Below, one piece after another: positions 3,337-56,411 of a stretch of DNA of 64,000 nt. The DNA is from Bacilli bacterium (GTDB lineage Bacteria > Bacillota_I > Bacilli_A > RF39 > UBA660), in contig JAGHHZ010000024.1 in assembly GCA_017887425.1 (NCBI GenBank), positions 49,534-113,533 of the forward strand, in the 5' to 3' direction. Positions within the stretch are counted from its first letter, which is position 1, and the number at the start of each line of letters is the position of its first letter. The notes beneath the pieces were generated by a model. The model was given only the letters and a program-made list of their open reading frames with translations, searched no databases and was not told the DNA's origin. The position numbers and the translations under genes were made by a program.

Positions 3337-5063
3337 TTACAAAAGGGGACAAAATAAATGATCGTTATCAGATTATTAAAACGATTGGCGAAGGTGGTAT
3401 GGCTAATGTCTATTTAGCTCAAGATACAATTTTAAATAGACAAGTAGCTGTAAAGATATTAAGAGGAGATTTAGCTGATGATGAAAAGTTCGTAAGACGT
3501 TTTCAAAGAGAAGCTCTATCAGCTAGTAAACTAAATCATCCTAACATTGTTGAAGTTTATGATGTTGGTGAAGATAATGGTCAATATTATATCGTTATGG
3601 AATATGTTAATGGTAAAACATTGAAAAGTTTAGTTAAAAAACGAGGTGCTTTAACTTTACCAGAAGTAATTGATATTATGACACAACTATTAAGTGCAGT
3701 TATGTGTGCTCATGATAGTTATATTATCCACCGTGATATCAAACCACAAAATGTTATGATTTTAGAAGATGGAAAAGTCAAAATCATGGATTTTGGGATT
3801 GCGATGGCTTTAAATAGTAATGAACTAACGCAAACCAATTCCGTTATGGGGTCAGTTCATTATCTACCACCAGAACAGGCTAATGGTAGTGGTTCAACAA
3901 TTAAATCGGATATTTATTCTTTAGGTATTTTAATGTATGAACTATTAACAGGTAAAGTACCATTTAAAGGCGATAATGCTGTGGAAATTGCTATTAAGCA
4001 GATGAAAGAACCTATTCCATCTGTTTGTAAACAAAATCCCGATATACCACAATCAATTGAAAATATTATTTTAAGAGCTTGTGCAAAAAATCCTAAAAAT
4101 CGTTATGATTCAGTTAAAGAAATGTATGAAGATGTTTTAAAAGCTTTAAACGAAGATGAGATGAATCAAAAGAAATTAGTCTATAAATATCCAGAACATG
4201 AATTAGAAGAAACAAAAGTTATGCCTAATTTAAGCCGTCTAGAAAAGAATCAAAAGGAGGAAGAAGAAGTGCCAAAAGTTAAAAAGAAAAAAAGCGTTAA
4301 AGATAAAATATTGTGGATAACTGGTGGCATTTGTGCAGTATTAGTTGCTTTAATCTGCTTATTTATCATTGTCTACCCTAAATTAGTTGAAGTACCTGAT
4401 GTTACAATTCCCGATGTTAGTAATTTAACTGTTCCAGAAGCTGAAGCTAAGTTAAAAGAAACAGGGTTATTAGTAGCTAGTGACGTTGAAGAAAAAGAAA
4501 ATGATGAAATCGAACCAGGAAAAGTTGTGGGAACTAATCCTCAAGTTGGAAGAACTGTTAAAGAAGGAACTGAAGTAACTATTATTATTGCTAAAGAAAG
4601 TGGTAAAGTAACTTTAGAAAATTATGTTGGAATGACTTATAAAACAGTTGAAGCTAATTTAAAAAATGCTGGATTAAATGTTATTGTCGAACCAAGAAAA
4701 ATTGCTAAAGATGATCAAGAAGATTATCAATATGATGAGTTCGATATAATTGAACAAAGTGCTAGTGAAGGAACATCTTTAGATCCAGGAGATACTATTA
4801 TTTTATACTATGCTGTATTTACAGTTGAGTATCCAAATTTCTTTGAAGAAAATTATACACTTGAAGCAGTTCAAGAATTCTGTGAAGAAAATGATGTTAA
4901 TTTAGAAGTTAATTATCAAACTAGTGATGAATATCCAGAAGGAACAATAATTAGTCAAAACCGTACCGGTGAAGTTATAGCAGGATCTACTTTAACTATT
5001 ACTGTAACCCAAAGAACTCCATCAGAACCAACAACTCCAGAAGTTCCAGAGACAATTGAATAA
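3333..5063 (+). CDS. pknB: Ser/Thr protein kinase PknB/PrkC with one TM helix and three extracellular PASTA domains
   Basis: Hanks kinase motifs (GEGGMANVY, HRDIKPQN, DFGIA, SVHYLPPE). TM helix ILWITGGICAVLVALICLFIIV. Three roughly 65-aa PASTA-like repeats follow. Confidence 0.92.
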   Translation: MITKGDKINDRYQIIKTIGEGGMANVYLAQDTILNRQVAVKILRGDLADDEKFVRRFQREALSASKLNHPNIVEVYDVGEDNGQYYIVMEYVNGKTLKSLVKKRGALTLPEVIDIMTQLLSAVMCAHDSYIIHRDIKPQNVMILEDGKVKIMDFGIAMALNSNELTQTNSVMGSVHYLPPEQANGSGSTIKSDIYSLGILMYELLTGKVPFKGDNAVEIAIKQMKEPIPSVCKQNPDIPQSIENIILRACAKNPKNRYDSVKEMYEDVLKALNEDEMNQKKLVYKYPEHELEETKVMPNLSRLEKNQKEEEEVPKVKKKKSVKDKILWITGGICAVLVALICLFIIVYPKLVEVPDVTIPDVSNLTVPEAEAKLKETGLLVASDVEEKENDEIEPGKVVGTNPQVGRTVKEGTEVTIIIAKESGKVTLENYVGMTYKTVEANLKNAGLNVIVEPRKIAKDDQEDYQYDEFDIIEQSASEGTSLDPGDTIILYYAVFTVEYPNFFEENYTLEAVQEFCEENDVNLEVNYQTSDEYPEGTIISQNRTGEVIAGSTLTITVTQRTPSEPTTPEVPETIE

Positions 5064-17477: not shown

Positions 17478-17676
17478 TGGTATAATATAGATGTCTAGGG
17501 ATAGCGACAAGCTCATTTAGAAAAACCGACTAATTAACGAATATTGGGAATCTAATTCATCAACGGTGTTGAATGCTCAATTAATTTTGAGAATCCTAAA
17601 GTTGATGATGTGATGCCCACCTGGTAGAGACTAGGTTTTATCGTTAAGGGCCCGCATTCTTGGACTTTTTTTTTTG
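17478..17676 (+). ncRNA. Candidate small RNA or structured transcript (~180 nt) with its own extended -10 promoter and a terminal T-tract
   Basis: TGgTATAAT extended -10 at 17478..17486. The non-coding stretch has GC-richer islands (gatgcccacctggtagag, gggcccgc). It ends in a T10 run at 17666..17675. A separate TATAAT promoter for tkt follows. Confidence 0.35.
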
Positions 17677-17719: not shown

Positions 17720-19648
17720 ATGGACCGCGAAATAGTTAATAATATTAAAAGTTTAGGAATTGATATGATTGATAAAGCTGGAAGTGGCCATCCAGGAATT
17801 GTTTTAGGAGCAGCTTCAATTATTTACACTCTTTATGCTAAACATATGAATGTAAAGCAAGATGATCCATTATGGGAAAACAGAGATCGTTTTGTTTTAT
17901 CAGCTGGGCATGGTTCAGCTTTACTATATGCGACTTTATATATGGCAGGATTTAATTTGACTCTTGATGATTTAAAACAATTTAGACACATTCATTCTAA
18001 AACACCAGGGCATCCTGAATATGGGGTAACTGAAGGTGTGGATATGTCAACAGGGCCATTAGGTCAAGGCATTGCTTCCGCTGTCGGAATGGCTTTAGCT
18101 GGTAAAATCTTAAATAAGAAGTATGAAATCCCTAAAAAAAGTAAATTAGGAAAAGAGCAAAGTTTATTTGACTATAATGTTTATGTTTTATGTGGCGATG
18201 GCGATTTAATGGAAGGAATTAGTTATGAAGCTACATCTTTAGCAGGGAGTTTAAAACTTAACAATTTAATTGTTTTATATGATTCAAATAATATTAGTTT
18301 AGATGGCAAAACTGATAATGTTTTTGATGATAATATTATCGAACGTTTTAAAGCTTTAAACTGGAATACAATTCAGGTAAAAGATGGAACGATTATTTCA
18401 AGCATTGACAAAGCGATTGAAGAAGCTAAAAAAAGTGATAAACCAACATTAATTCAAATAAAAACGATAATTGGCGAAGGATCAATTAATGAAGGAACGA
18501 ATAAAGTTCATGGTTCACCTTTAGATAAAGATGATATTACTAAACTAAAATTAAATTTAAAAATCGAACCAGAAGAATTTTATGTCAACCAAGAAGCAAG
18601 AAATAATTTTATTAAACAAATAACTGAAAGAAGTTCAAAAAAATATGAATTATTTAATAAACAAGCTAAGGAATTAAAATATCAAAAAGAAGATATAAGA
18701 TTAGATTTAGGAAACTTACTTTTTGACTATAATTTAAAAGAATCATTGAGAGTAAGTAATGGTAAAATAATGCAAGAAATAGCTAAAAAAATCCCTAACT
18801 TTATTGGTGGAAGTGCAGATTTAGGTTCATCAACTAAGGTAGTACTACCTAATACATTAGAAAACTTCGTTGGCGACAATATTAATTTTGGGGTAAGAGA
18901 ACATGCGATGGGAGCTATATTAAATGGTTTAGCTTTAAATAATTTTTATGCTTTTGGCTCAACATTTTTAGTTTTTTCTGATTATTTAAAACCGGCTATT
19001 AGAATGAGTGCTCTTATGAATTTACCTGTTACTTATATTTTCACTCACGACTCAATTAATATTGGTCAAGATGGACCAACACATCAACCGATCGAACAAT
19101 TAGCATCTTTAAGAAGTATTCCTAATTTAGAAGTTTTTAGACCAGCTGATGCTAAAGAAATAACGGGATGTTGGGAATATATTATCAACAATAAAAAGCC
19201 AAGCTGTTTAATTTTATCGAGAAATGAAACTAGTCTTCTTGATAAGACTGATCGCCATTCAGTTAGTTATGGTGGATATATTGTTCGTAAAGAAGAAAAT
19301 TTACACGCTATTATTATCAGTACCGGTAGTGAAGTAGAATTAAGTATTAAAATAGCTGATACTTTATATGAAATGTATAAGTTAGATGTAAGAGTTGTAA
19401 GTATGCCAAATCGTGAACTGTTTTCAAAACAAAGTAAAGAATATCAAGAAGAAATTTTACCAAAAGGTTATCGGATAATAGTTATTGAAGCGGGAAGTAA
19501 ACAAGGTTGGGAAGGATTTGTCTATAACGATAAATATTTATTTACTTTAGATAAGTTCGGATATAGTGGTACCAAAGAAGAAGTAGCTAATGAAATGGAC
19601 TTTAGCTATGATCAAATCTTAAAAAAAATTATCAAATTACTAAAATAA
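17720..19648 (+). CDS. tkt: Transketolase
   Basis: TPP-binding motifs GSGHPG, GDGDLMEG and the transketolase signature HDSINIGQDGPTHQPIE. The start is placed at the Met after RBS AAAGAGGTGA (17720), not at the upstream ORF start. Confidence 0.92.
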   Translation: MDREIVNNIKSLGIDMIDKAGSGHPGIVLGAASIIYTLYAKHMNVKQDDPLWENRDRFVLSAGHGSALLYATLYMAGFNLTLDDLKQFRHIHSKTPGHPEYGVTEGVDMSTGPLGQGIASAVGMALAGKILNKKYEIPKKSKLGKEQSLFDYNVYVLCGDGDLMEGISYEATSLAGSLKLNNLIVLYDSNNISLDGKTDNVFDDNIIERFKALNWNTIQVKDGTIISSIDKAIEEAKKSDKPTLIQIKTIIGEGSINEGTNKVHGSPLDKDDITKLKLNLKIEPEEFYVNQEARNNFIKQITERSSKKYELFNKQAKELKYQKEDIRLDLGNLLFDYNLKESLRVSNGKIMQEIAKKIPNFIGGSADLGSSTKVVLPNTLENFVGDNINFGVREHAMGAILNGLALNNFYAFGSTFLVFSDYLKPAIRMSALMNLPVTYIFTHDSINIGQDGPTHQPIEQLASLRSIPNLEVFRPADAKEITGCWEYIINNKKPSCLILSRNETSLLDKTDRHSVSYGGYIVRKEENLHAIIISTGSEVELSIKIADTLYEMYKLDVRVVSMPNRELFSKQSKEYQEEILPKGYRIIVIEAGSKQGWEGFVYNDKYLFTLDKFGYSGTKEEVANEMDFSYDQILKKIIKLLK

Positions 19649-19687: not shown

Positions 19688-20089
19688 GTGATACTAATGC
19701 GAGAATATAATCTTTTTGTTATTAAAAAAGAGTATTACGAATATTATCAAAGAAATCCTTTGTTTTTATTTGATATTTTAAAAAAATTATATGTTATGAA
19801 AGAAAACTTTAACTATGGTATTTCTTTATATAGTCAGTTATGTGAAAGAATAAATACATTTAATTTAAAATATTATTTAAATAGAAAATATCATTTAGAT
19901 AATGAAAGAACATTTTATATTGAAAAATCTTTTATCGAATTAAAACATACAAGGATAATCATTAGGTCTAAATATGATACTAAAATTATTAATGAGTTTA
20001 GCAATTTTAGTAAATATTTCTTTGTTTGTGATTTTATCAACAACGATTATTTTTGGTTAGATAGAAAAAATACTTTAATTTGTACATAA
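19688..20089 (+). CDS. Hypothetical protein (133 aa)
   Basis: ORF with AGGTGA RBS. Y/F-rich with no recognisable motifs. Confidence 0.4.
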   Translation: MILMREYNLFVIKKEYYEYYQRNPLFLFDILKKLYVMKENFNYGISLYSQLCERINTFNLKYYLNRKYHLDNERTFYIEKSFIELKHTRIIIRSKYDTKIINEFSNFSKYFFVCDFINNDYFWLDRKNTLICT

Positions 20090-20143
20090 TTTGTTTGAAA
20101 TATAGCTTTTAATGATATAATAGTAAGCATTAGGAGTGGTTAT

Positions 20144-20764
20144 GTGAAAGATTATACATTTGATAAAATATCAAGAGAAAAATTTATTAAAAATTATAAA
20201 ATAAAAGATAATCAAATTATCATTAATTTAGCTAGTAAAGAAAAATATGTGATACCTTATACAAAAGAAAATGAAGAAAAAATATTAGCTAGAATGGAAG
20301 AACAAGTAAATAGTTCATATATTAAACCATTAGGAGTGATTTATAAATCTTTAGTAGCAGGTTCTTACATTTGGATATTAATAGGTATTTATATGTATGT
20401 AGTAAGTGGTGGAATTTTAAACATTGCTTTAGCGTTAGGAACTTCTACATTATTTAATATAAAAATGTTTATTCATCAATCTAAAGTAAAGGATTTAGAA
20501 AAACAAAAATTCTTTCTTGAATACCGAAAAATGCTAAATGATAATATTAAAAAATCTTCTAATATGACTTTAGGAGTAGACAAAAAAATTGTAAAAAAAG
20601 TTGAACAAACAGAAGATATCCCAACATTTGATATTAATTCAATTGATAGCTATTCACTAAATGATTTAAAAAAGCTTAGAAGAAATATTTTACGTTTTCA
20701 AGAGTTTGGATTTGATGAAAAAACTAATGAAGAAAAAGATAAACGCTTAGAATATCATAAATAA
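20144..20764 (+). CDS. Hypothetical membrane protein (206 aa) immediately upstream of the atypical sigma factor
   Basis: GTG start after AGGAGTGG. Central pair of TM helices (YIWILIGIYMYVVSGGILNIALALG) with charged flanks. Confidence 0.45.
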   Translation: MKDYTFDKISREKFIKNYKIKDNQIIINLASKEKYVIPYTKENEEKILARMEEQVNSSYIKPLGVIYKSLVAGSYIWILIGIYMYVVSGGILNIALALGTSTLFNIKMFIHQSKVKDLEKQKFFLEYRKMLNDNIKKSSNMTLGVDKKIVKKVEQTEDIPTFDINSIDSYSLNDLKKLRRNILRFQEFGFDEKTNEEKDKRLEYHK

Positions 20765-20780
20765 TAAGGCAGGTGGTTTT

Positions 20781-22268
20781 GTGGAGTTAGTTTTACCTAA
20801 AAGTAATAATACTGCTGAAAATAAAAAATTATTTGAGCAACTTAATAGTGGTAATCTTTCAATACGTAATAAAATTATTGAAAAAAATTTAAGATTAGTT
20901 GAAATGACTATTCAAAAAAAATTACCAGATTTTTCTGATTTACCATATATGGATAAAGAAGATTTATTTGAAATTGGATGTATTGGATTAATCAAGGCTG
21001 TTGATAGTTACGATTTAGATAGAGGAAAAGCCTTTTCAGCTTATGCAGTTATTTGTATTAGAAACGAAATATTAATGTATTATCGAAAAAACAAAAAGTT
21101 AAGTTTAATTGATAGTTTAAATGAAAATGTTAGTGAAGAAGATGAACGAAGTAAAGTTGAACTTTTAGTATCTAATGAAGAAAGCATCGAAGATCAGTAT
21201 ATTCAAAAAGAAACTAGTATAGAGATGTTAGAACATTTATCTTGTCTAACAGAAATAGAAAAGAAAGCAGTTAAACTCTACTATGGTTTTGGAGAACGAC
21301 GATTTACTGACCGAGAAATTGCTCAAGAATTAGGATATTCACAATCTTATATAAGCAGAATATTAAAAAAAGCTCGACATAAATTAAAAGATTTGCTGGA
21401 AAATAAATCTTTTAATGAAATAGTTCAAGAGGAATATAGTTTTGAAGTTTCTGATGCATTCGCACTATTTAGTGAATATCCTCGAGCTAAAATTATTAGA
21501 ACAATTAAGAAGTTACCTAAGGCAAAAAGAAAATTGTTTTTAGATTGTTATCCAATTAATGGTAAATATGGATTAACATTTAAAGAAGTTTGCCAAAAAT
21601 ATAATTTATCTAGTAAAGTTTTATTAAGAAAATTAGATAAAATTAAAGAAGAAATTTTATTTTTAATTATACAAGATCAAAGAAAAACTAGACAAGTAGA
21701 TATTTTTAAACAACTTCCTGATTATCCAAAAGAAAAAGTACTTGAAGCAATTCATATGCTAGAAGAACCTAATCAAACTATTTTCACTCTACGTTATGGA
21801 ATTGATAGAAAAAATCAACTTAGTGTTGAAGAAATAGTTTCTAAACTAGAAGGAAAAGAATTAGATATTCCTTTAACACCTGAAAGTGTTATTAAAAATT
21901 TATTTGTATCTAGACAGACAATAAAAAGACTGGTTCAACAAGGAAACGGTATCAAAATAAAAACTAATTTTTTAAATTCTGAAGAGTTATTTTTTTCTAA
22001 TTTTCCTGGTTATTCTAAAGAACAAGTTTTATCACTATTTCCTAATTTATTAGAGCGAAGAAGAATAATAGTAGAATTGTGCTTTGGCTTAAATGGTAAT
22101 GAGACAAAAAGTATCAAAGAAATAGCTATAATGATGGGGTGCAGTCAAAAAGAAGTTAAACAAAGAGTAGAATATGTAATAAAAGTTTTGAATAAACAGT
22201 TAAAAGATCGGTATAAAGAGCCAGAAGATAGTAAAGTTTTGACTAAGAAAAAAGTTGAAAAAAGATAA
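20781..22268 (+). CDS. Sigma-70 family RNA polymerase sigma factor with three additional C-terminal region-4-like HTH modules (495 aa)
   Basis: Region 2 (LRLVEMTIQKK...EDLFEIGCIGLIKAVDSYDLDRGKAFSAYAVICIRNEI). Region 4 (LTEIEKKAVKLYYG...TDREIAQELGYSQSYISRILKKARHKL). Three further repeats share the region-4 pattern (LPKAKRKLFLDCYP...FKEVCQKYNLSSKVLLRKL; TIFTLRYGID...SVEEIVSKLEG; RRIIVELCFGLNG...IKEIAIMMGCSQKEVKQRVEYVIKVL). GTG start after AGGCAGGTGG. Confidence 0.7.
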   Translation: MELVLPKSNNTAENKKLFEQLNSGNLSIRNKIIEKNLRLVEMTIQKKLPDFSDLPYMDKEDLFEIGCIGLIKAVDSYDLDRGKAFSAYAVICIRNEILMYYRKNKKLSLIDSLNENVSEEDERSKVELLVSNEESIEDQYIQKETSIEMLEHLSCLTEIEKKAVKLYYGFGERRFTDREIAQELGYSQSYISRILKKARHKLKDLLENKSFNEIVQEEYSFEVSDAFALFSEYPRAKIIRTIKKLPKAKRKLFLDCYPINGKYGLTFKEVCQKYNLSSKVLLRKLDKIKEEILFLIIQDQRKTRQVDIFKQLPDYPKEKVLEAIHMLEEPNQTIFTLRYGIDRKNQLSVEEIVSKLEGKELDIPLTPESVIKNLFVSRQTIKRLVQQGNGIKIKTNFLNSEELFFSNFPGYSKEQVLSLFPNLLERRRIIVELCFGLNGNETKSIKEIAIMMGCSQKEVKQRVEYVIKVLNKQLKDRYKEPEDSKVLTKKKVEKR

Positions 22269-25222: not shown

Positions 25223-25297
25223 GCAGGTGTAGTACAGCGGTTAGTATACGGCCTTGCCAAGGCTGGGACGGCGGTTCGATTCCGCTCACTTGCTCCA
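25223..25297 (+). tRNA. tRNA-Gly (anticodon GCC)
   Basis: Hand-folded cloverleaf. Acceptor stem GCAGGTG/CACTTGC, D-arm, anticodon stem CGGCC/GGCTG with loop TTGCCAA, T-loop GGTTCGATTCC, discriminator U and an encoded CCA. Confidence 0.9.
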
Positions 25298-25306
25298 TTG
25301 AAAAAT

Positions 25307-25347
25307 AACTTACGGAATGTAAAAATTTCGTAAGTTTTATTTTATTT
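25307..25347 (+). terminator. Rho-independent terminator downstream of tRNA-Gly
   Basis: AACTTACG-(14 nt)-CGTAAGTT hairpin followed by a T-rich tract. Confidence 0.55.
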
Positions 25348-25568
25348 AAATTGATGTATTAGATAATTAATATTTTTTGCTAAGAAATTTTACTGTATTT
25401 TTTTCTTTAATAAATTGTGTGATGTAAAATTCTAATAATGTTTTATAAATATATAGAATATCCTTATTACTAATTGTTTCACTAGAAAAGTACATATCTA
25501 ATCGAGGTAAACCTATATCTATCAAATCAATACCAACATGATTTTCTCAAGGTTTAATTAATATAATT

Positions 25569-26357
25569 TTATATTTTTAATAGTTTTGTATAAGTGATTT
25601 CCCCTTGTTCGTCTTTTACTTTATTTTCTCTTGAAGTTATATGATTTACTTCACAATATCTTTTTTTGAATTCAGTTTCGTCTTTTAAAAGTTCTCGCAT
25701 ATCTTTTAAAAATATTTTATATGTTTCATCTTCGAAGAACATATTTTCTGGACTATCTTCACTATATTTTTTTGATAATCTTTTTATTGTATAGTTCAAA
25801 TAATCTTCGATATTTTCTTCTGGCATTCTTTCGTGAGCAACAAAGAAACTTCTGATAAAAACAATTTCTATTCTGGTATTTCTATCCGCCGAAGAAATTA
25901 ATTTACCATAAATACTTCTTGGATCATCTTCTTTAGAAGAACGGTGATCTTCAATGGCTTCTTTAATTATTGTTCTTTCTTCATCAGTAAAAAATTTTTT
26001 CATATTTTCGTCTTCAATAAATCTTTTAGCAGCAATCTTTTCATGAATTGTATGATCTTCATATTTTCCTAAGTCATGACAAGCTGCTATTGCATATATC
26101 ATATTATCATCTAATCCTAGTTTGAAAGTGTCATTTAAAGCAAATGCTCTTCTTATAACTTCAATGATATGAACAATTCCATGAGCTTTATCATTTGGTT
26201 CATATTGTGGAAAAATAAATTCTATAATGTACTTCTTTAATTCAGGATTGACATTTTTAGTATAATAATCGAATTCATCGATTCCAACTGCTTCTAAAAT
26301 TTTAGAGCGATATACATCAAAACTAACTTTAGGCTTCACTTTATTATATAAGATCAT
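25569..26357 (-). CDS. HD-domain phosphohydrolase
   Basis: HD motif region GIVHIIEV and AACHDLGKYEDH. 262 aa. Confidence 0.65.
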   Translation of the reverse strand: MILYNKVKPKVSFDVYRSKILEAVGIDEFDYYTKNVNPELKKYIIEFIFPQYEPNDKAHGIVHIIEVIRRAFALNDTFKLGLDDNMIYAIAACHDLGKYEDHTIHEKIAAKRFIEDENMKKFFTDEERTIIKEAIEDHRSSKEDDPRSIYGKLISSADRNTRIEIVFIRSFFVAHERMPEENIEDYLNYTIKRLSKKYSEDSPENMFFEDETYKIFLKDMRELLKDETEFKKRYCEVNHITSRENKVKDEQGEITYTKLLKI

Positions 26358-26548
26358 CTAAAGATAAATTAGAATTATCTTTTTTGATTTCAAAAAATAT
26401 TTCTTTTAAATTATTATTCATTATTCATCTCCAACTTTCTAAATATCTTTTATTATACAATTTTTATTACGAAAATAAAAGAAAAATTTATCTTTTCTAA
26501 TTAACAAAAATGTGTTATAATTTTAAACGGGTTGAAGGAGTGAATAAA

Positions 26549-36313: not shown

Positions 36314-37603
36314 TTACACATACTTTCTAACATCAACAATGTGATGAATCGTAACATAAATAATATTCACACTACTTGCAATTACTAAACTCCATAAACC
36401 TAGTCCCATATTACAACATACAATCAAGCAAACAGTTCTTAAAATCATACCAACTAATGTTCCAAACATAGCTGTATGAGATTTGCCAATTGCTTGTAAA
36501 GTGGATGTAAGGGGAGCTTGAATATAATGAAGTAGGCAAATAGGGGCTAAAACTTTAATGTAATTAATTCCTTCATTAGTATTAAAAATTAATTTTAAAG
36601 GTATTTCAGGAATAAAGGTAAAGATTAAAGTGGCAGGAATTCCTATCAACAAAGAAAAGAACAAAGCTTGTTTTATCTTATTTCTAACATATTCATATTT
36701 TTTATTACTATATCCTTGACTAACAATAGGTAATAGGGCTTGTGATATCGCACCAGTAAAAAATGAAGGTAATAATATAAGAGGCATAACATAACCATTT
36801 AAAACACCATATTCTGTTAAAATATATTGATTAGTAAAGCCTGTTTTAAGTAAAAAAAAGGTCAAGATAATTGGTTCAAAAAAGGCCCCAATAGTTCCGA
36901 TTAGACGACTACCAGTTGTCGGTAAACTTATTTCCAAAATATCTTTGATATTACTCAAATTAGGAGTAATATCATTTTTATTTAATTTAAAATTTTTAGG
37001 TAGAAAGAAAAATAAAATAATAATAGAAGTTAATTCACTAATAATATTAGATAAAATTAAAAATGCAACAGCATATTCTAAACCTTTCATTAAAAACAAT
37101 GGTGTAAATAAAATAATACTAATTAATCTTGTTATATCTTCGGTGATGTTAGAAACAACATGGGGAATCATTTTCTGTTTACCAAAAAAGTAACCTCTTA
37201 AAATGCTTGATATTGATATGAATGGTAAAACTAAACCAATAGCAATAATTGAATAATAGCTTCGTGGCTCATGCAATAAATTATCGGCAATAAATCTACC
37301 ACTTATTAATATGGTTAACATAATTAAAATATTAATAATAATAGCAATTGCTACAGCTGAAAAAACTAATTTTTTATTATTTCTTTTATCTTCAGAAACT
37401 AATTTAGAAATGGCTGTTGGCATACCTAAAGTGCAAATGGCGATAAACAACATAAAAGTTGGATTTACTAACATATATAATCCGATACCTTCAGTACCGA
37501 CTAATCTAGTCATAACAATTTTAATAACCATGCTTAAAATTTTCGTTATAAATCCACCAATAATCAAAATAATAGTAGCAACAACAAATTTATTTTTTTT
37601 CAT
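36314..37603 (-). CDS. MOP-superfamily polysaccharide biosynthesis protein / putative flippase (Wzx/MurJ/MATE-like)
   Basis: 429-aa polytopic membrane protein (about 12 TM helices) with an N-terminal KFVVATIILIIGGFITKILSMVIKIVMTRLVG segment typical of the polysaccharide biosynthesis protein family. Confidence 0.6.
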   Translation of the reverse strand: MKKNKFVVATIILIIGGFITKILSMVIKIVMTRLVGTEGIGLYMLVNPTFMLFIAICTLGMPTAISKLVSEDKRNNKKLVFSAVAIAIIINILIMLTILISGRFIADNLLHEPRSYYSIIAIGLVLPFISISSILRGYFFGKQKMIPHVVSNITEDITRLISIILFTPLFLMKGLEYAVAFLILSNIISELTSIIILFFFLPKNFKLNKNDITPNLSNIKDILEISLPTTGSRLIGTIGAFFEPIILTFFLLKTGFTNQYILTEYGVLNGYVMPLILLPSFFTGAISQALLPIVSQGYSNKKYEYVRNKIKQALFFSLLIGIPATLIFTFIPEIPLKLIFNTNEGINYIKVLAPICLLHYIQAPLTSTLQAIGKSHTAMFGTLVGMILRTVCLIVCCNMGLGLWSLVIASSVNIIYVTIHHIVDVRKYV

Positions 37604-47806: not shown

Positions 47807-47853
47807 AAAATAATATCAACAAATAAAAAACATATACTTTATTGGGTGAGTAT

Positions 47854-49764
47854 ATGTTTTTTAAAAATATTCATATCAGAATCAAAATAGTAATGTTATT
47901 AATATTTTTTCTATTTGCTCTAATTATTGGTAAAGTATTTTATATCCAAGTTTTTTCTTATGAAAAATTAAATAATTATGCAACTGGTTTATGGAGTAGA
48001 AATTTACCTATTGAAGCTAATCGCGGTAAGATTTATGATAGAAACGGTGTAGTACTTGCTGATAATGTTACAACAACTTCTTTAGTTTTGATTCCCAATC
48101 AAATTGAAGATAAGGAAAAAACGGCTGAATTAATTGCTCCAATTTTAGGGATAAGTTATGAAGATATGTATGCTCATGTTAGTAAAAAAACATCGATAGA
48201 AAGAGTTCATCCTGAAGGAAGAAGATTAGATTATGAAACAGCCGATAAAATTAGTGATTTAGAACTACCAGGAGTATATTTATTAAAAGAAAGTAAAAGA
48301 TATTATCCTTATGGAGAAATGTTAGCTCATACTTTAGGTTTTGTTGGTATCGATAATCAAGGCTTATCAGGTTTAGAACTTATGTATGATGAATATCTAA
48401 CTGGTAGTTATGGTGCTATTAAATATTTCAGTGATGCGAAAGGTAATAAATTAGAACTATCAGAAATCTATGAGCAACCACAAGATGGCATCGATATTTA
48501 TTTAACGATAGATTATAATATTCAAATAGCTTTAGAAAGAGAATTGGATAATGTTATTAGTAAATATAATCCCGATCAGGCATTAGGAATTGTTATGGAT
48601 CCTAAGACAGGAGAAGTTTTAGCTATCGCATCACGTCCTTCTTTTGATCCTAGTAACTATGAAGATTATAGTACGGAAACAATCAATCGTAATTTACCAA
48701 TTTGGATGACTTATGAGCCAGGTAGTACTTTTAAAATAATAACTTTGGCTACAGCTTTAGAAGAAAATTTAGTTGATTTAGAAGAAGAACATTTTTATGA
48801 TGGCGGAGCAGTAACGGTAGGTGGTGCAACTATTCACTGCTGGAAACATGGTGGACATGGTGATCAAACATTTTTACAAGTTGTTGAAAATTCTTGTAAT
48901 CCAGGATTTGTTGATTTAGGTTTACGAATTGGTAAAGAAACTTTATTTAATTATATCGATAATTTTGGCTTTGGAGAAGTTACTGGTATTGATTTAAATG
49001 GTGAAGCAAGTGGTATTATTTTTGATATTGATAAAATAGGTGATTTGGAATTAGCAACAACGTCTTTTGGCCAAGGTGTGTCGGTTACGCCCATTCAACA
49101 AGTAACAGCTGTTAGTGCGGCTATTAATGGTGGAACATTATATACTCCTTATATTGTTAAAAGTTTAAATGAACCAGAAACTAATAGTATCATTGTGAAT
49201 AACGAACCTAAGGTAGTTAGAAAAGTAATAAGTGAAAATACTAGTGCCAAAGTAAGGTATGCTTTAGAAAGTGTTGTGGCTAATGGAACTGGAAGAAATG
49301 CTTATATTGCTAATTATCGAGTAGGTGGTAAAACAGGAACAGCCCAAAAAGTTCAAGATGGTAAATATTTAGTTGGAAATTATATTACTTCTTTCATGGG
49401 ATTTTTACCAGCTGATGATCCGGAAGTAGTAGTTTATGTAGCTATTGATAATGCAAAAGGAGTTACGCAATATGGTGGAACAATTGCAGCACCAATTGCT
49501 AAAAATGTCTTAAATGCTGCTATATCAGCTTTAGAAATCGAAGAAAGATATGATGGGATGACTAAAGAATATAACTATGGTGATAAAAGGTATTATACTT
49601 TACCTAACGTTGTTGGAATGGATACGAAAGAAGCAGTTACTAATTTAAAACCTTTTAAAGTTGAGTTTAGTGGTAGTGGTAGTAAAGTGATTTATCAATC
49701 ACCATCTACCAATAGCTATATGCAAGAAGGCGAAGTAGTAAGATTAATGCTAGGAGGAGATTAA
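47854..49764 (+). CDS. Class B penicillin-binding protein (FtsI/SpoVD-like transpeptidase) with one C-terminal PASTA domain
   Basis: N-terminal TM helix. Transpeptidase motifs (STFK, SCN, KTGTA). The C-terminal PASTA is TLPNVVGMDTKEAVTNLK. Confidence 0.88.
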   Translation: MFFKNIHIRIKIVMLLIFFLFALIIGKVFYIQVFSYEKLNNYATGLWSRNLPIEANRGKIYDRNGVVLADNVTTTSLVLIPNQIEDKEKTAELIAPILGISYEDMYAHVSKKTSIERVHPEGRRLDYETADKISDLELPGVYLLKESKRYYPYGEMLAHTLGFVGIDNQGLSGLELMYDEYLTGSYGAIKYFSDAKGNKLELSEIYEQPQDGIDIYLTIDYNIQIALERELDNVISKYNPDQALGIVMDPKTGEVLAIASRPSFDPSNYEDYSTETINRNLPIWMTYEPGSTFKIITLATALEENLVDLEEEHFYDGGAVTVGGATIHCWKHGGHGDQTFLQVVENSCNPGFVDLGLRIGKETLFNYIDNFGFGEVTGIDLNGEASGIIFDIDKIGDLELATTSFGQGVSVTPIQQVTAVSAAINGGTLYTPYIVKSLNEPETNSIIVNNEPKVVRKVISENTSAKVRYALESVVANGTGRNAYIANYRVGGKTGTAQKVQDGKYLVGNYITSFMGFLPADDPEVVVYVAIDNAKGVTQYGGTIAAPIAKNVLNAAISALEIEERYDGMTKEYNYGDKRYYTLPNVVGMDTKEAVTNLKPFKVEFSGSGSKVIYQSPSTNSYMQEGEVVRLMLGGD

Positions 49765-52691: not shown

Positions 52692-53774
52692 ATGAAAAAA
52701 ATAGATTGGACTTTATTAATAAGCGTTATTATAATAAGTATTTTTGGAGTTTTAATGATTTATTCAGCTTCTTATATTTGGGCAGAATATAAATATGGTG
52801 ATGCCTTAAAATATGTTAAAAATCAGGGACTTTTTTTTATAGTTGGAATTATTTTAATGATAATAATTAGCAAAATCGATTATAAAATATATTTAAAAAA
52901 GTCTAATCTAATTTTATTGACTTGTTTAATTTTACTAGTTTTAGTTTTAATTCCTGGAATAGGTACAGTTAGAAATGGTAGTCGCAGTTGGTTTGGAATA
53001 GGTTCTTTTGGTATTCAACCGAGTGAATTTACTAAATTAGGTCTTATTATTTTCGTTTCTAAATATTTAGCTTGCAATGAAAAAGCAACTAAAAATTTTA
53101 AAGGTATTTTACCTGTCTTAGGATTATTAGTTTTAGTATTTGGACTTATTATGTTACAACCGGATTTTGGAACTGGAACTATTATTGTTATGTCGATAGT
53201 TGGTTTATTGTTTGTCGGTGGCGTTAATTTTAAATATTTTATTAGGTTAGGAATAGTTGGAGTTATTGGAATAGTTGGTCTAATATTGGCTGCTCCATAT
53301 CGACTAAGTCGTATATTATCTTTTTTAAATCCTTGGAGTGATCCTTTAGGAAGTGGCTTTCAAATTATTCAAAGTTTATATGCAATTGGTCCAGGAGGTC
53401 TATTTGGTTTTGGAATAGGTAATTCTAGACAAAAACACTTTTTTCTACCTGAACCACAAACAGATTTTATTTTTTCAATTATCAGTGAAGAATTAGGATT
53501 TTTAGGCTGTGTGATTGTCGTCGGTTTATTTATAACTATTTGTTATACAGGATTTAAAATATCCAAAAATTGTAATGATAGATTTGGAAAGTATTTATCT
53601 TTTGGAATTATTTTTCAAATTGCTTTTCAAGCCTGTTTGAATTTAATGGTTGTTGTCGGATTAATACCAGTAACAGGTGTAACGCTTCCTTTTCTATCGT
53701 ATGGTGGCTCATCTTTATTAATTACTTTATGCAGTATTGGAATAGTTTTAAATGTTTCTAGATTTCAAAGATGA
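52692..53774 (+). CDS. ftsW: SEDS-family peptidoglycan glycosyltransferase (FtsW/RodA/SpoVE)
   Basis: 10-TM SEDS protein with conserved QPSEFTK, PDFGT and LPEPQTDFIFS motifs. Confidence 0.88.
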   Translation: MKKIDWTLLISVIIISIFGVLMIYSASYIWAEYKYGDALKYVKNQGLFFIVGIILMIIISKIDYKIYLKKSNLILLTCLILLVLVLIPGIGTVRNGSRSWFGIGSFGIQPSEFTKLGLIIFVSKYLACNEKATKNFKGILPVLGLLVLVFGLIMLQPDFGTGTIIVMSIVGLLFVGGVNFKYFIRLGIVGVIGIVGLILAAPYRLSRILSFLNPWSDPLGSGFQIIQSLYAIGPGGLFGFGIGNSRQKHFFLPEPQTDFIFSIISEELGFLGCVIVVGLFITICYTGFKISKNCNDRFGKYLSFGIIFQIAFQACLNLMVVVGLIPVTGVTLPFLSYGGSSLLITLCSIGIVLNVSRFQR

Positions 53775-55598: not shown

Positions 55599-55624
55599 AA
55601 ATATGGATTGCTCCATATTTTTTT
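55599..55624. terminator. Bidirectional terminator between gmk (+) and the collagen-like gene (-)
   Basis: AAATATGGA-ttgc-TCCATATTT hairpin with an A-run upstream and a T-run downstream. Confidence 0.6.
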
Positions 55625-56411
55625 AGTTAATTCTTGTTATAGAAACGCTGGCAGAGTATAGATTATTTGGTACTAATTCGAAATCATTATATGAGGTGTT
55701 AATGAATCTATAGCTTGCTCCAGGAAGTGCTTCAAATATAGCATTACCATTAATTGTACCAGTTTCACAACATGAAAGTTTATTGTGGGTTGAAGAGTGT
55801 GCGATTAAAATGTCTTCTGGCCAGAATTGGTGAAATTCTATTCCTAGCGGTTTTTCTTCGCAATTGAAGTTATCATTTTTATGACTTCTAACATTTACCC
55901 ACCAATGGACGATATAGATTCCAGCTTCTGGAATAGAAAAGTCTCCAGTTGCAGGATTATATGTGATTTTGTTGGAAATGTTAGTATTTTGGAATAAAAT
56001 AGGGTTTTGTGATTGAACTGTAGAATTAGATCTATCGTGAACCATTGCATAACTATCTAAATTAATTCCAGGTCCAGCAGGTCCAGTAGGTCCAGTTGCA
56101 CCAGTCGCACCACTAGGTCCAGTAGGTCCAGTAGCACCAGTCGCACCACTAGGTCCAGTAGGTCCAGTGGCACCAGTCGCACCGCTAGGTCCAGTAGGTC
56201 CAGTAGATCCAGTAGCACCAGTAGCACCGCTAGGTCCGGTAGGTCCAGTTGCGCCGGTAGCTCCTCTAGGCCCAGTAGGTCCAGTACATCCACATGGTCC
56301 GGTAGGTCCTTGTTTTTGACGGTCAACTAAACACTTTATAACTTCGCATAAAGGGTTATTTCTACATTCGTCTTTTCTTAAGAATTCTTCAATTTTGTCA
56401 TTCTCGTTCAT
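55623..56411 (-). CDS. BclA-like collagen-repeat protein: short N-terminal domain, about 28 G-X-Y triplets, and a C1q/TNF-like C-terminal domain
   Basis: [33 protein letters not shown]... G-X-Y repeats built from a [12 protein letters not shown] 12-aa unit. The roughly 140-aa C-terminal domain has the beta-rich character of the BclA globular domain. Strong RBS AAAGGAGG. The gene is convergent with gmk. Confidence 0.75.
56068..56310. repeat. GC-rich tandem 9-bp (GGTCCAGTA-type) and 36-bp repeats encoding the collagen G-X-T triplets
   Basis: A ggtccagtaggtccagtggcaccagtcgcaccgcta unit repeats more than 4 times with single-base variants. Local GC is far above the window average. Confidence 0.85.

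Follow-up and report, generated by a model that had tools for sequence, protein, structure and literature searches.

In the textbook account a sigma factor has a single promoter-reading region 4, and the locus described here raises the question of what such a factor would do with four. The gene under study (20781..22268, + strand) lies in a 64,000-nucleotide stretch of contig JAGHHZ010000024.1 (hereafter the window, meaning the whole of the DNA that was analysed), from an uncultured member of the Bacillota with 27% GC and with sporulation genes. It encodes a protein of 495 amino acids (aa) in which a sigma core is followed by a C-terminal array of sigma-4-like domains. An earlier note on this DNA had proposed that the protein combines one region 2 with four region-4-like helix-turn-helix (HTH) modules. 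That proposal proved correct on the evidence of a repeat hidden Markov model (HMM), hhalign and a BLASTP self-comparison, with Pfam in partial agreement.

A SigK/E-type core followed by three sigma-4-like modules

The open reading frame, present in the program-made list and backed by Pfam and NCBIfam matches and a same-length orthologue, begins with GTG as the earlier note had it, and has the Shine-Dalgarno sequence AGGTGG 4 nt upstream. Residues 35–106 (20883..21098, +) match Sigma70_r2 (PF04542) at 51.1 bits against a cut-off of 24; this region 2 (sigma-2) is the part of a sigma factor expected to contact core polymerase and the −10 element. The canonical region 4 (sigma-4), identified by Pfam and the repeat HMM, occupies residues 148–210 (21222..21410, +) and carries the recognition helix SQSYISR typical of SigE and SigK. 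Sigma70_r4 (PF04545) reaches 78.1 bits against a cut-off of 24.1, with its best stretch at residues 153–203 and a second match at residues 414–463. With regions 2 and 4 both above the Pfam thresholds, this protein belongs to the sigma-70 family.

The NCBIfam models place the core more narrowly. Positions 28–231 (of 235) of the SigK model PRK05803 align with residues 5–209 (162 bits, below the cut-off of 252), and the SigE model aligns to the same residues (139 bits, below its equivalog cut-off). Since residues 5–209 align end to end with mature SigK/SigE, residues 1–210 can be read as a complete group-3 factor of the SigK/E type, made of sigma-2, a short linker and sigma-4. The protein begins at position 26–36 of the SigK/SigE models, which leaves no room for the pro-peptide region. 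The best models for the core all belong to group 3 (SigK/E/G/F), with Sigma70_ECF scoring only 20.8 bits, and the predicted full-length model resembles the sigma chains of holoenzyme structures. Neither equivalog cut-off is reached, by TIGR02846 for SigK (149.3 bits, 298.65 required) or by TIGR02835 for SigE (129.2 bits, 348.6 required), and the protein is accordingly not a SigK or SigE equivalog. It is an extra SigK/E-like paralogue in its host.

The 285 residues beyond the core form three modules of roughly 80–95 aa each. Module 1 (residues 226–302; 21456..21686, +) consists of an aromatic N-cap, AFALFSEY, and four helices, with a predicted local distance difference test score (pLDDT) of 79–95. 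Module 2 (residues 308–386; 21702..21938, +) opens with the N-cap IFKQLPDY and is modelled with a pLDDT of 83–91 when the tail is predicted by itself. Module 3 (residues 401–477; 21981..22211, +) has the N-cap LFFSNFPGY and the recognition helix SQKEVKQR. The repeat HMM, built from repeats of family proteins other than the window protein, found four matches: residues 148–210 (26 bits), 227–293 (34 bits), 308–360 (40 bits) and 404–476 (63 bits). The canonical sigma-4 enters this HMM at position 12 and therefore has no N-cap, while modules 1–3 enter it at position 1–2.

The three further tandem repeats claimed by the earlier note were in this way recovered by the HMM, and their kinship with region 4 was confirmed by aligning a profile of 197 repeat units with a profile of 69 ordinary SigE/K sigma-4 segments (hhalign probability 99.2%, E = 3e-19). 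The modules also match one another in the BLASTP self-comparison (2e-7, 2e-5 and 8e-5), with a pairwise identity of merely 19–30%. The Pfam search proposed at the outset held in part: region 2, the canonical region 4 and module 3 were found, the last scoring 27.8 bits by itself against the Sigma70_r4 cut-off of 24.1, while modules 1 and 2 scanned singly gave no significant region-4 match. Structure prediction, likewise proposed, returned an AlphaFold model of the tail alone with a mean pLDDT of 82, in which structured modules are separated by linkers of low pLDDT, so that the modelled tail has the appearance of beads on a string. Alignment of the units revealed recognition helices that differ from module to module and a 7-residue insertion in the HTH turn of module 2; module 1 bears a net charge of +11. 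Taken globally, all three tail modules are HTH domains of the sigma-4 fold joined by flexible linkers.

The reading frame is genuine and its tail is conserved

The earlier note had allowed that the frame might be a fusion artefact of two genes. This is excluded, as the 495-aa frame recurs in independent assemblies. The orthologue at locus L001 (P0002) is 80% identical, also 495 aa long and set in an identical gene order, and a 99%-identical protein represents a 90% cluster of 125 member sequences from many assemblies. We computed the ratio of nonsynonymous to synonymous substitution rates (dN/dS) between the sigma gene of the window and its L001 orthologue, and the values were 0.25 (sigma core), 0.39 (module 1), 0.135 (module 2) and 0.107 (module 3). 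Amino acid identity is 91% for module 2, 93% for module 3 and 69% for the core. These ratios place the tail under purifying selection and, together with the same-length orthologue and the 125-member cluster, rule out a gene fusion, frameshift or assembly error. The modules, being only 19–30% identical to one another, are old yet intact.

A family of chained repeats

When the tail by itself was used as a phmmer query, only 91 of 1.84 billion representative proteins matched at E <= 1e-3. Members of this family are 45–1722 aa long and contain 1–17 copies of a unit of about 76 aa with the consensus FYxLFPxYSKEQVLEAIxxLxxxNKKIIELxYGLNGxxxLSxKEIAxKxNxSxxxIxxRIxxIKKKIKKxL. Sigma-2 is detectable in 44 of 90 family representatives and absent from the other 46, some of which may be fragments from short contigs. 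Where a core is present, it is of one of two kinds, SigF/G-like (P0157, P0158, L010) or SigK/E-like (the window protein, L090, P0221, P0172, P0162), and P0162 and P0170 have it in the interior of the protein, flanked by repeats.

GTDB genomes scanned with the whole protein gave no match; scanned with repeat patterns, they yielded a single genuine family member (L010) together with 79 ordinary SigE/K genes, and the latter served as a control set. These ordinary factors, from 79 genomes, match the repeat HMM only from position 7–20 on, and we therefore take the aromatic N-cap as the signature of the repeat. The tandem N-capped family is defined in this analysis, and is not a curated one, by at least two full units that include the N-cap (HMM positions 1–10); the window protein has three. 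A distant branch (P0005 to P0057, 446–787 aa) has repeats of an IYEYF type in which only the sigma-4.1 half is recognisable.

The earlier note had not recognised the architecture, which is indeed unusual. No model of the repeat unit was found in Pfam, NCBIfam, PHROGs or PADLOC, where all matches were to the region-4 part of sigma models, and no description of sigma factors with several region 4s was found in the literature searched, the coverage of which was incomplete. The family loci have 22–31% GC and ordinary housekeeping neighbours, and NCBI labels the carriers as "Bacilli bacterium" metagenome-assembled genomes. This is a rare family of uncultured low-GC gut and rumen bacteria, not described in the libraries and literature searched.

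Some members are far larger than the window protein or stand in unusual settings. P0157 (1706 aa) and the 1363-aa protein at 4354..8445 of L010 combine a SigF/G-like core with 4–8 repeats, a long region containing tetratricopeptide repeats (TPR) and a terminal HTH. In P0162 (1722 aa), 17 repeat-HMM matches flank the internal core. Five consecutive sigma paralogues (227, 246, 331, 317 and 508 aa) follow one another at 2470..7527 of L006, the last of them with IYEYF-type repeats, which suggests a local expansion of the family in some genomes.

Two further readings of the gene were considered and found no support. For a phage origin, the viral contigs scanned with module patterns, which were narrow, contained no carrier, and the PHROG matches of the sigma protein were to generic sigma families. 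For a defence system, the models match no more than the generic sigma similarity to MzaA.

A variable locus between sirA and yneF

The sigma gene lies downstream of a gene for a 206-aa transmembrane (TM) protein (20144..20764, +), and both are placed between sirA and yneF. Comparison of relatives revealed four states of this locus: tkt-sirA-yneF-gltX in L091; tkt-sirA-sigma-yneF-gltX in L090, with a sigma factor of 215 aa; tkt-sirA-TM-yneF-gltX in L095 (NCBI assembly GCA_944363895.1) and L096; and tkt-sirA-TM-sigma-yneF-gltX, with the 495-aa factor, in the window and L001. In view of these states, the gap between sirA and yneF is a hot spot of variation, in which the TM gene and the sigma gene are both accessory and each able to occur alone. 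Over residues 5–206 of the window protein, the positional orthologue of L090 shows 40% identity; the two proteins have a loop insertion in common, and the L090 factor lacks the repeats. L095 and L096 are close to the window in the flanking genes (tkt 91–92% identical, gltX 94–99%), and the end of the sigma reading frame lines up with intergenic DNA of L096, so that the gene behaves as a clean insertion or deletion of 1.5 kb. The gene is thus an accessory group-3 sigma factor whose presence depends on the strain.

Even where both genes are present, the locus differs between strains. The tkt, sirA, yneF and gltX products of the window and L001 are 97–99% identical (dN <= 0.012, dS 0.1–0.3), which by sequence puts the two in one species-level group. 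However, sliding-window identity delimits a divergent allelic block at 20200..21540, which takes in the TM gene, the core from sigma-2 to sigma-4 and the first part of module 1, and in which nucleotide identity to L001 falls to 59–85% from about 97–99% in the flanks. The TM proteins are 62% identical (dN 0.25, dS 0.60), with a dN/dS of about 1 in the membrane hairpin, and residues 1–255 of the sigma protein are about 69% identical, with a dN of 0.17–0.26 and a dS of 0.6–1.0, the same ranges as for the block overall. The N-terminal half of module 1 is inside the block; modules 2 and 3 are outside it.

With dN and dS both raised, the block looks like a set of old, divergent alleles that recombination has maintained or exchanged, and not like a product of recent positive selection. 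For the TM protein, at least three allele classes with a mutual identity of about 62% are found among the window, L001, L095 and L096, genomes whose flanking genes are 90–99% identical, and P0003 is a mosaic of the window and L001 alleles. Only the fact that TM protein and sigma core have both diverged between the two strains hints at a functional link between them.

A second strain-variable block was observed at 25290..26470, where an HD-domain gene (25569..26357, −) does not align with L001; that strain has instead a 538-aa HD_3 protein and a DUF8370/8371 protein.

Possible roles of the extra domains

Our preferred reading, held tentatively as a serious possibility somewhat short of probable, is that the extra sigma-4-like domains form a DNA-binding extension upstream of the −35 element. 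Mechanistically, the N-terminal part would bind core RNA polymerase and read the −10 and −35 elements as usual, while the three extra domains would act as built-in DNA-binding modules roughly 30–60 bp upstream of the −35 element, where the C-terminal domain of the alpha subunit (alpha-CTD) or activators normally bind. Promoter choice could in this way be tightened or redirected without a separate activator. With their divergent recognition helices, each module would read a different sequence, or else binding would not be sequence-specific.

We favour DNA binding because the units keep the charge pattern of sigma-4, often have a basic residue in the recognition helix and also occur without a sigma core. 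The charge of the recognition and C-terminal helices averages +2.9 in the 197 units, compared with +3.5 in ordinary SigE/K sigma-4, and column 59 of the HMM, in the recognition helix, is R or K in 92 of the 197 units. The L090 positional orthologue without repeats counts on the same side, as it suggests that the tail is accessory to the core. So do the complete sigma core, the net charge of module 1, the purifying selection on the tail and the flexible linkers.

Several observations weigh against a DNA-binding extension. From unit to unit the residues of the recognition helix vary widely (3.29 bits, compared with 0.38 in SigE/K), which could equally mean that DNA is no longer read. In many distant relatives, with IYEYF-type repeats as in P0022 and P0021, the HTH half is degenerate and no more than the first half of sigma-4 can be recognised, which speaks against DNA reading as a function common to the whole family. 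By entropy per position, conservation is highest in the aromatic N-cap and the sigma-4.1-like helices; the sigma-4.1 helices of sigma factors face protein (the beta flap) and not DNA. Tandem Repeats Finder detected no convincing arrays of intergenic motifs in the window. A promoter scan of the window performed no better than on shuffled sequence in this AT-rich DNA.

The same conservation pattern, in which the N-cap and sigma-4.1-like helices are the most conserved and the recognition helix the most variable, would also fit extra domains that bind protein instead. They could titrate an anti-sigma factor or an activator, or fold onto the core or the beta flap so that the factor stays inactive in the absence of a signal; PhyR, with its sigma-like domain, and some extracytoplasmic function (ECF) sigma factors, with their C-terminal extensions, offer an analogy. 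That distant relatives retain only the sigma-4.1 half would suit such decoys or regulators, and the TM protein and sigma core diverge together between strains as co-evolving partners would. However, the co-diverging block does not reach modules 2 and 3, the TM and sigma genes are each found alone, and the 206-aa neighbour has no detectable anti-sigma domain. The C-terminal helices have also stayed basic, and arrays of up to 17 units are hard to account for with a decoy. We regard this explanation as unlikely, although credible.

An improbable alternative is that the array serves as a scaffold for DNA or nucleoid binding apart from promoter recognition, either by tethering polymerase or some other protein to particular DNA, chromosomal or foreign, or by coating AT-rich DNA, with fusion to sigma being one use among several. 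Such a role would agree with the 46 of 90 representatives that lack a detectable sigma-2, although these may partly be short-contig fragments, and with the joining of arrays to sigma cores of two types and to the TPR regions of P0157 and L010. The internal core of P0162 and P0170, with repeats on both sides, points the same way. An accessory, hypervariable locus is moreover common among conflict and defence genes, but no defence model matches beyond the generic similarity to MzaA, no phage contig with the module was found with our narrow patterns, and the neighbours are ordinary housekeeping genes.

Quite improbable, in our estimate, is a more ambitious form of DNA reading, in which the N-capped unit would be a chainable domain with a conserved scaffold and a hypervariable recognition helix, used in arrays of 2–17 in the manner of zinc fingers or TALE repeats. 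A sigma core fused to such an array could gain a long composite promoter address or several interchangeable −35 readers.

We consider it very improbable that any of the four domains docks on the beta-flap tip, giving one core four −35 readers for several promoter classes. The domains do have a common sigma-4 fold, flexible linkers and differing recognition helices. However, only the canonical sigma-4 is tied to sigma-2 by the region-3.2 linker, which threads the RNA exit channel; the extra modules bear an N-cap that the canonical domain lacks; and exchange of this kind is impossible for members without sigma-2.

The last explanation, that the tail consists of functionless, decaying duplications of region 4 or of a fusion or assembly artefact, is already largely refuted and has almost negligible probability: the 215-aa L090 orthologue manages without a tail and module 2 has its insertion in the HTH turn, but independent assemblies contain the same 495-aa frame (125 cluster members; P0002, 80%), conservation of modules 2 and 3 exceeds that of the core (dN/dS 0.11–0.14), the modules are intact at an identity of 19–30%, and about 90 distinct protein clusters contain the module.

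Comparison with known systems

The closest known relatives of the window protein are SigK and SigE, which it resembles over residues 5–209, including the N-terminal LPxxL motif, sigma-2 and a sigma-4 with SQSYISR. It differs from them in falling far below the equivalog cut-offs (149 against 299, and 129 against 349), in having no pro-sequence, which in SigK and SigE is removed by SpoIVFB or SpoIIGA, in being encoded by an accessory gene between sirA and yneF, and in its 285 extra residues.

ECF factors with C-terminal extensions likewise have an extra domain fused in cis after region 4. These extensions (ECF41, ECF42, CorE, OrbS) can modulate activity and consist of SnoaL-like, TPR or Cys-rich sensor domains. 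ECF factors, however, belong to group 4, whereas the window core is of group 3 and its extension is a repeated sigma-4. An ECF factor with a sensor-type extension was accordingly rejected, given the group-3 best models, the 20.8 bits of Sigma70_ECF and a tail of sigma-4 repeats.

PhyR combines one sigma-like domain with a receiver domain and acts as an anti-anti-sigma mimic that does not bind core polymerase. The window protein is not PhyR-like, since it has no receiver domain; it also keeps a complete sigma core. YlxM/UPF0122 proteins and HTH proteins of the GerE/LuxR type contain one domain per protein and are usually dimers, while here 3–17 units, each with an aromatic N-cap, are chained in one polypeptide.

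MzaA of the MZA anti-phage system is, like the window protein, a long accessory member of the sigma family, with weak similarity in region 2. The match is limited to that region and reaches 54 bits in NCBIfam, where the cut-off is 800, and 32 bits in PADLOC. No other MZA genes were found near the sigma gene, and with a score so far below the cut-off and no partner genes, identity with MzaA was rejected.

Neighbouring genes

The first of the two upstream genes, described in the earlier note as a small, uncharacterised Y/F-rich protein, is probably a homologue of SirA and stands outside the sigma system. Its most likely start is ATG 19697 (19697..20089, +; 130 aa), not GTG 19688, and its L001 orthologue is also called at 130 aa. 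A profile of its family matched Bacillus subtilis SirA (PDB 4TPS) over the full length (E = 3.8e-4), while a search of the PDB with the single sequence gave no match. Six of its 22 homologues match Pfam SirA (best 2e-13); the window protein by itself scores 12.5 bits against a cut-off of 26.

In B. subtilis, sirA (yneE) adjoins yneF (PMC3592452), and the same adjacency is found in L091, where no sigma gene is present. The SirA-like gene also keeps its place in the other relatives without a sigma gene (L095, L096). The similarity to SirA and the neighbouring yneF make it a conserved syntenic neighbour rather than an uncharacterised partner of the sigma factor.

The second gene was correctly described as encoding a two-TM membrane protein: hydropathy places its hairpin at about residues 69–104. 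The 206-aa product has only 30 detectable relatives, and a domain search in Pfam, NCBIfam, PHROGs and PADLOC returned no match and no anti-sigma domain. L095 and L096 have this gene but no sigma gene, L090 has a sigma gene but not this one, and its distant homologues in L093 and L094 are not beside sigma genes. We therefore rejected its identification as an anti-sigma factor, as it has no domain match and is present without the sigma gene in L093–L096.

The earlier note had suggested that both genes could be cognate regulators and had proposed to check whether they co-occur with the sigma gene. No conserved pairing was seen in the gene contexts compared: the SirA-like gene is placed independently of the sigma gene, and the TM and sigma genes each occur alone. 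The gene-context comparison of relatives rejects the two as conserved partners; for the TM protein, a partnership with the sigma factor is nevertheless possible.

The gap between sirA and the TM gene (20090..20143) contains, on reading the sequence, a promoter-like site made of TTGAAA, a 15-nt spacer and TGATATAAT, which resembles an extended −10 promoter. In view of this site, the TM and sigma genes may have their own sigmaA-type promoter.

Other features of the window

The sporulation genes of the host include those for SpoVD (47842..49764, −; 734 bits against an equivalog cut-off of 688), SpoVE (52692..53774, −; 449.4 bits, just above the cut-off of 448.8) and a SpoVB-like protein (36314..37603, −; by model match). 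The presence of these three and of the SirA-like gene indicates a host that forms spores or did so recently.

A 6S RNA gene (17489..17670, +), a full-length match of 72 bits to Rfam RF00013, immediately precedes tkt. As it overlaps the TTG listed as the tkt start (17660), the true start of tkt is probably the ATG at 17720 (MDREIV...). A collagen-like gene at 55623..56411 (−) contains about 27 copies of a 9-bp (Gly-X-Y) repeat and has a weak NCBIfam match (62 bits) to streptococcal collagen-like adhesins of the Scl type; its product could be a filament protein of the spore or the cell surface.

Implications

A sigma factor with four domains of the sigma-4 fold, and a family that chains up to 17 of them, appear in no family library or literature that we searched. 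If the extra domains read DNA, promoter specificity would be built into the polymerase itself in a novel manner, and the domains would possibly be a source of modular DNA-binding parts; if they are decoys, they would represent a new form of sigma self-regulation. The placement of the gene in a strain-variable hot spot of an uncultured gut bacterium suggests an accessory regulatory programme that differs between strains.

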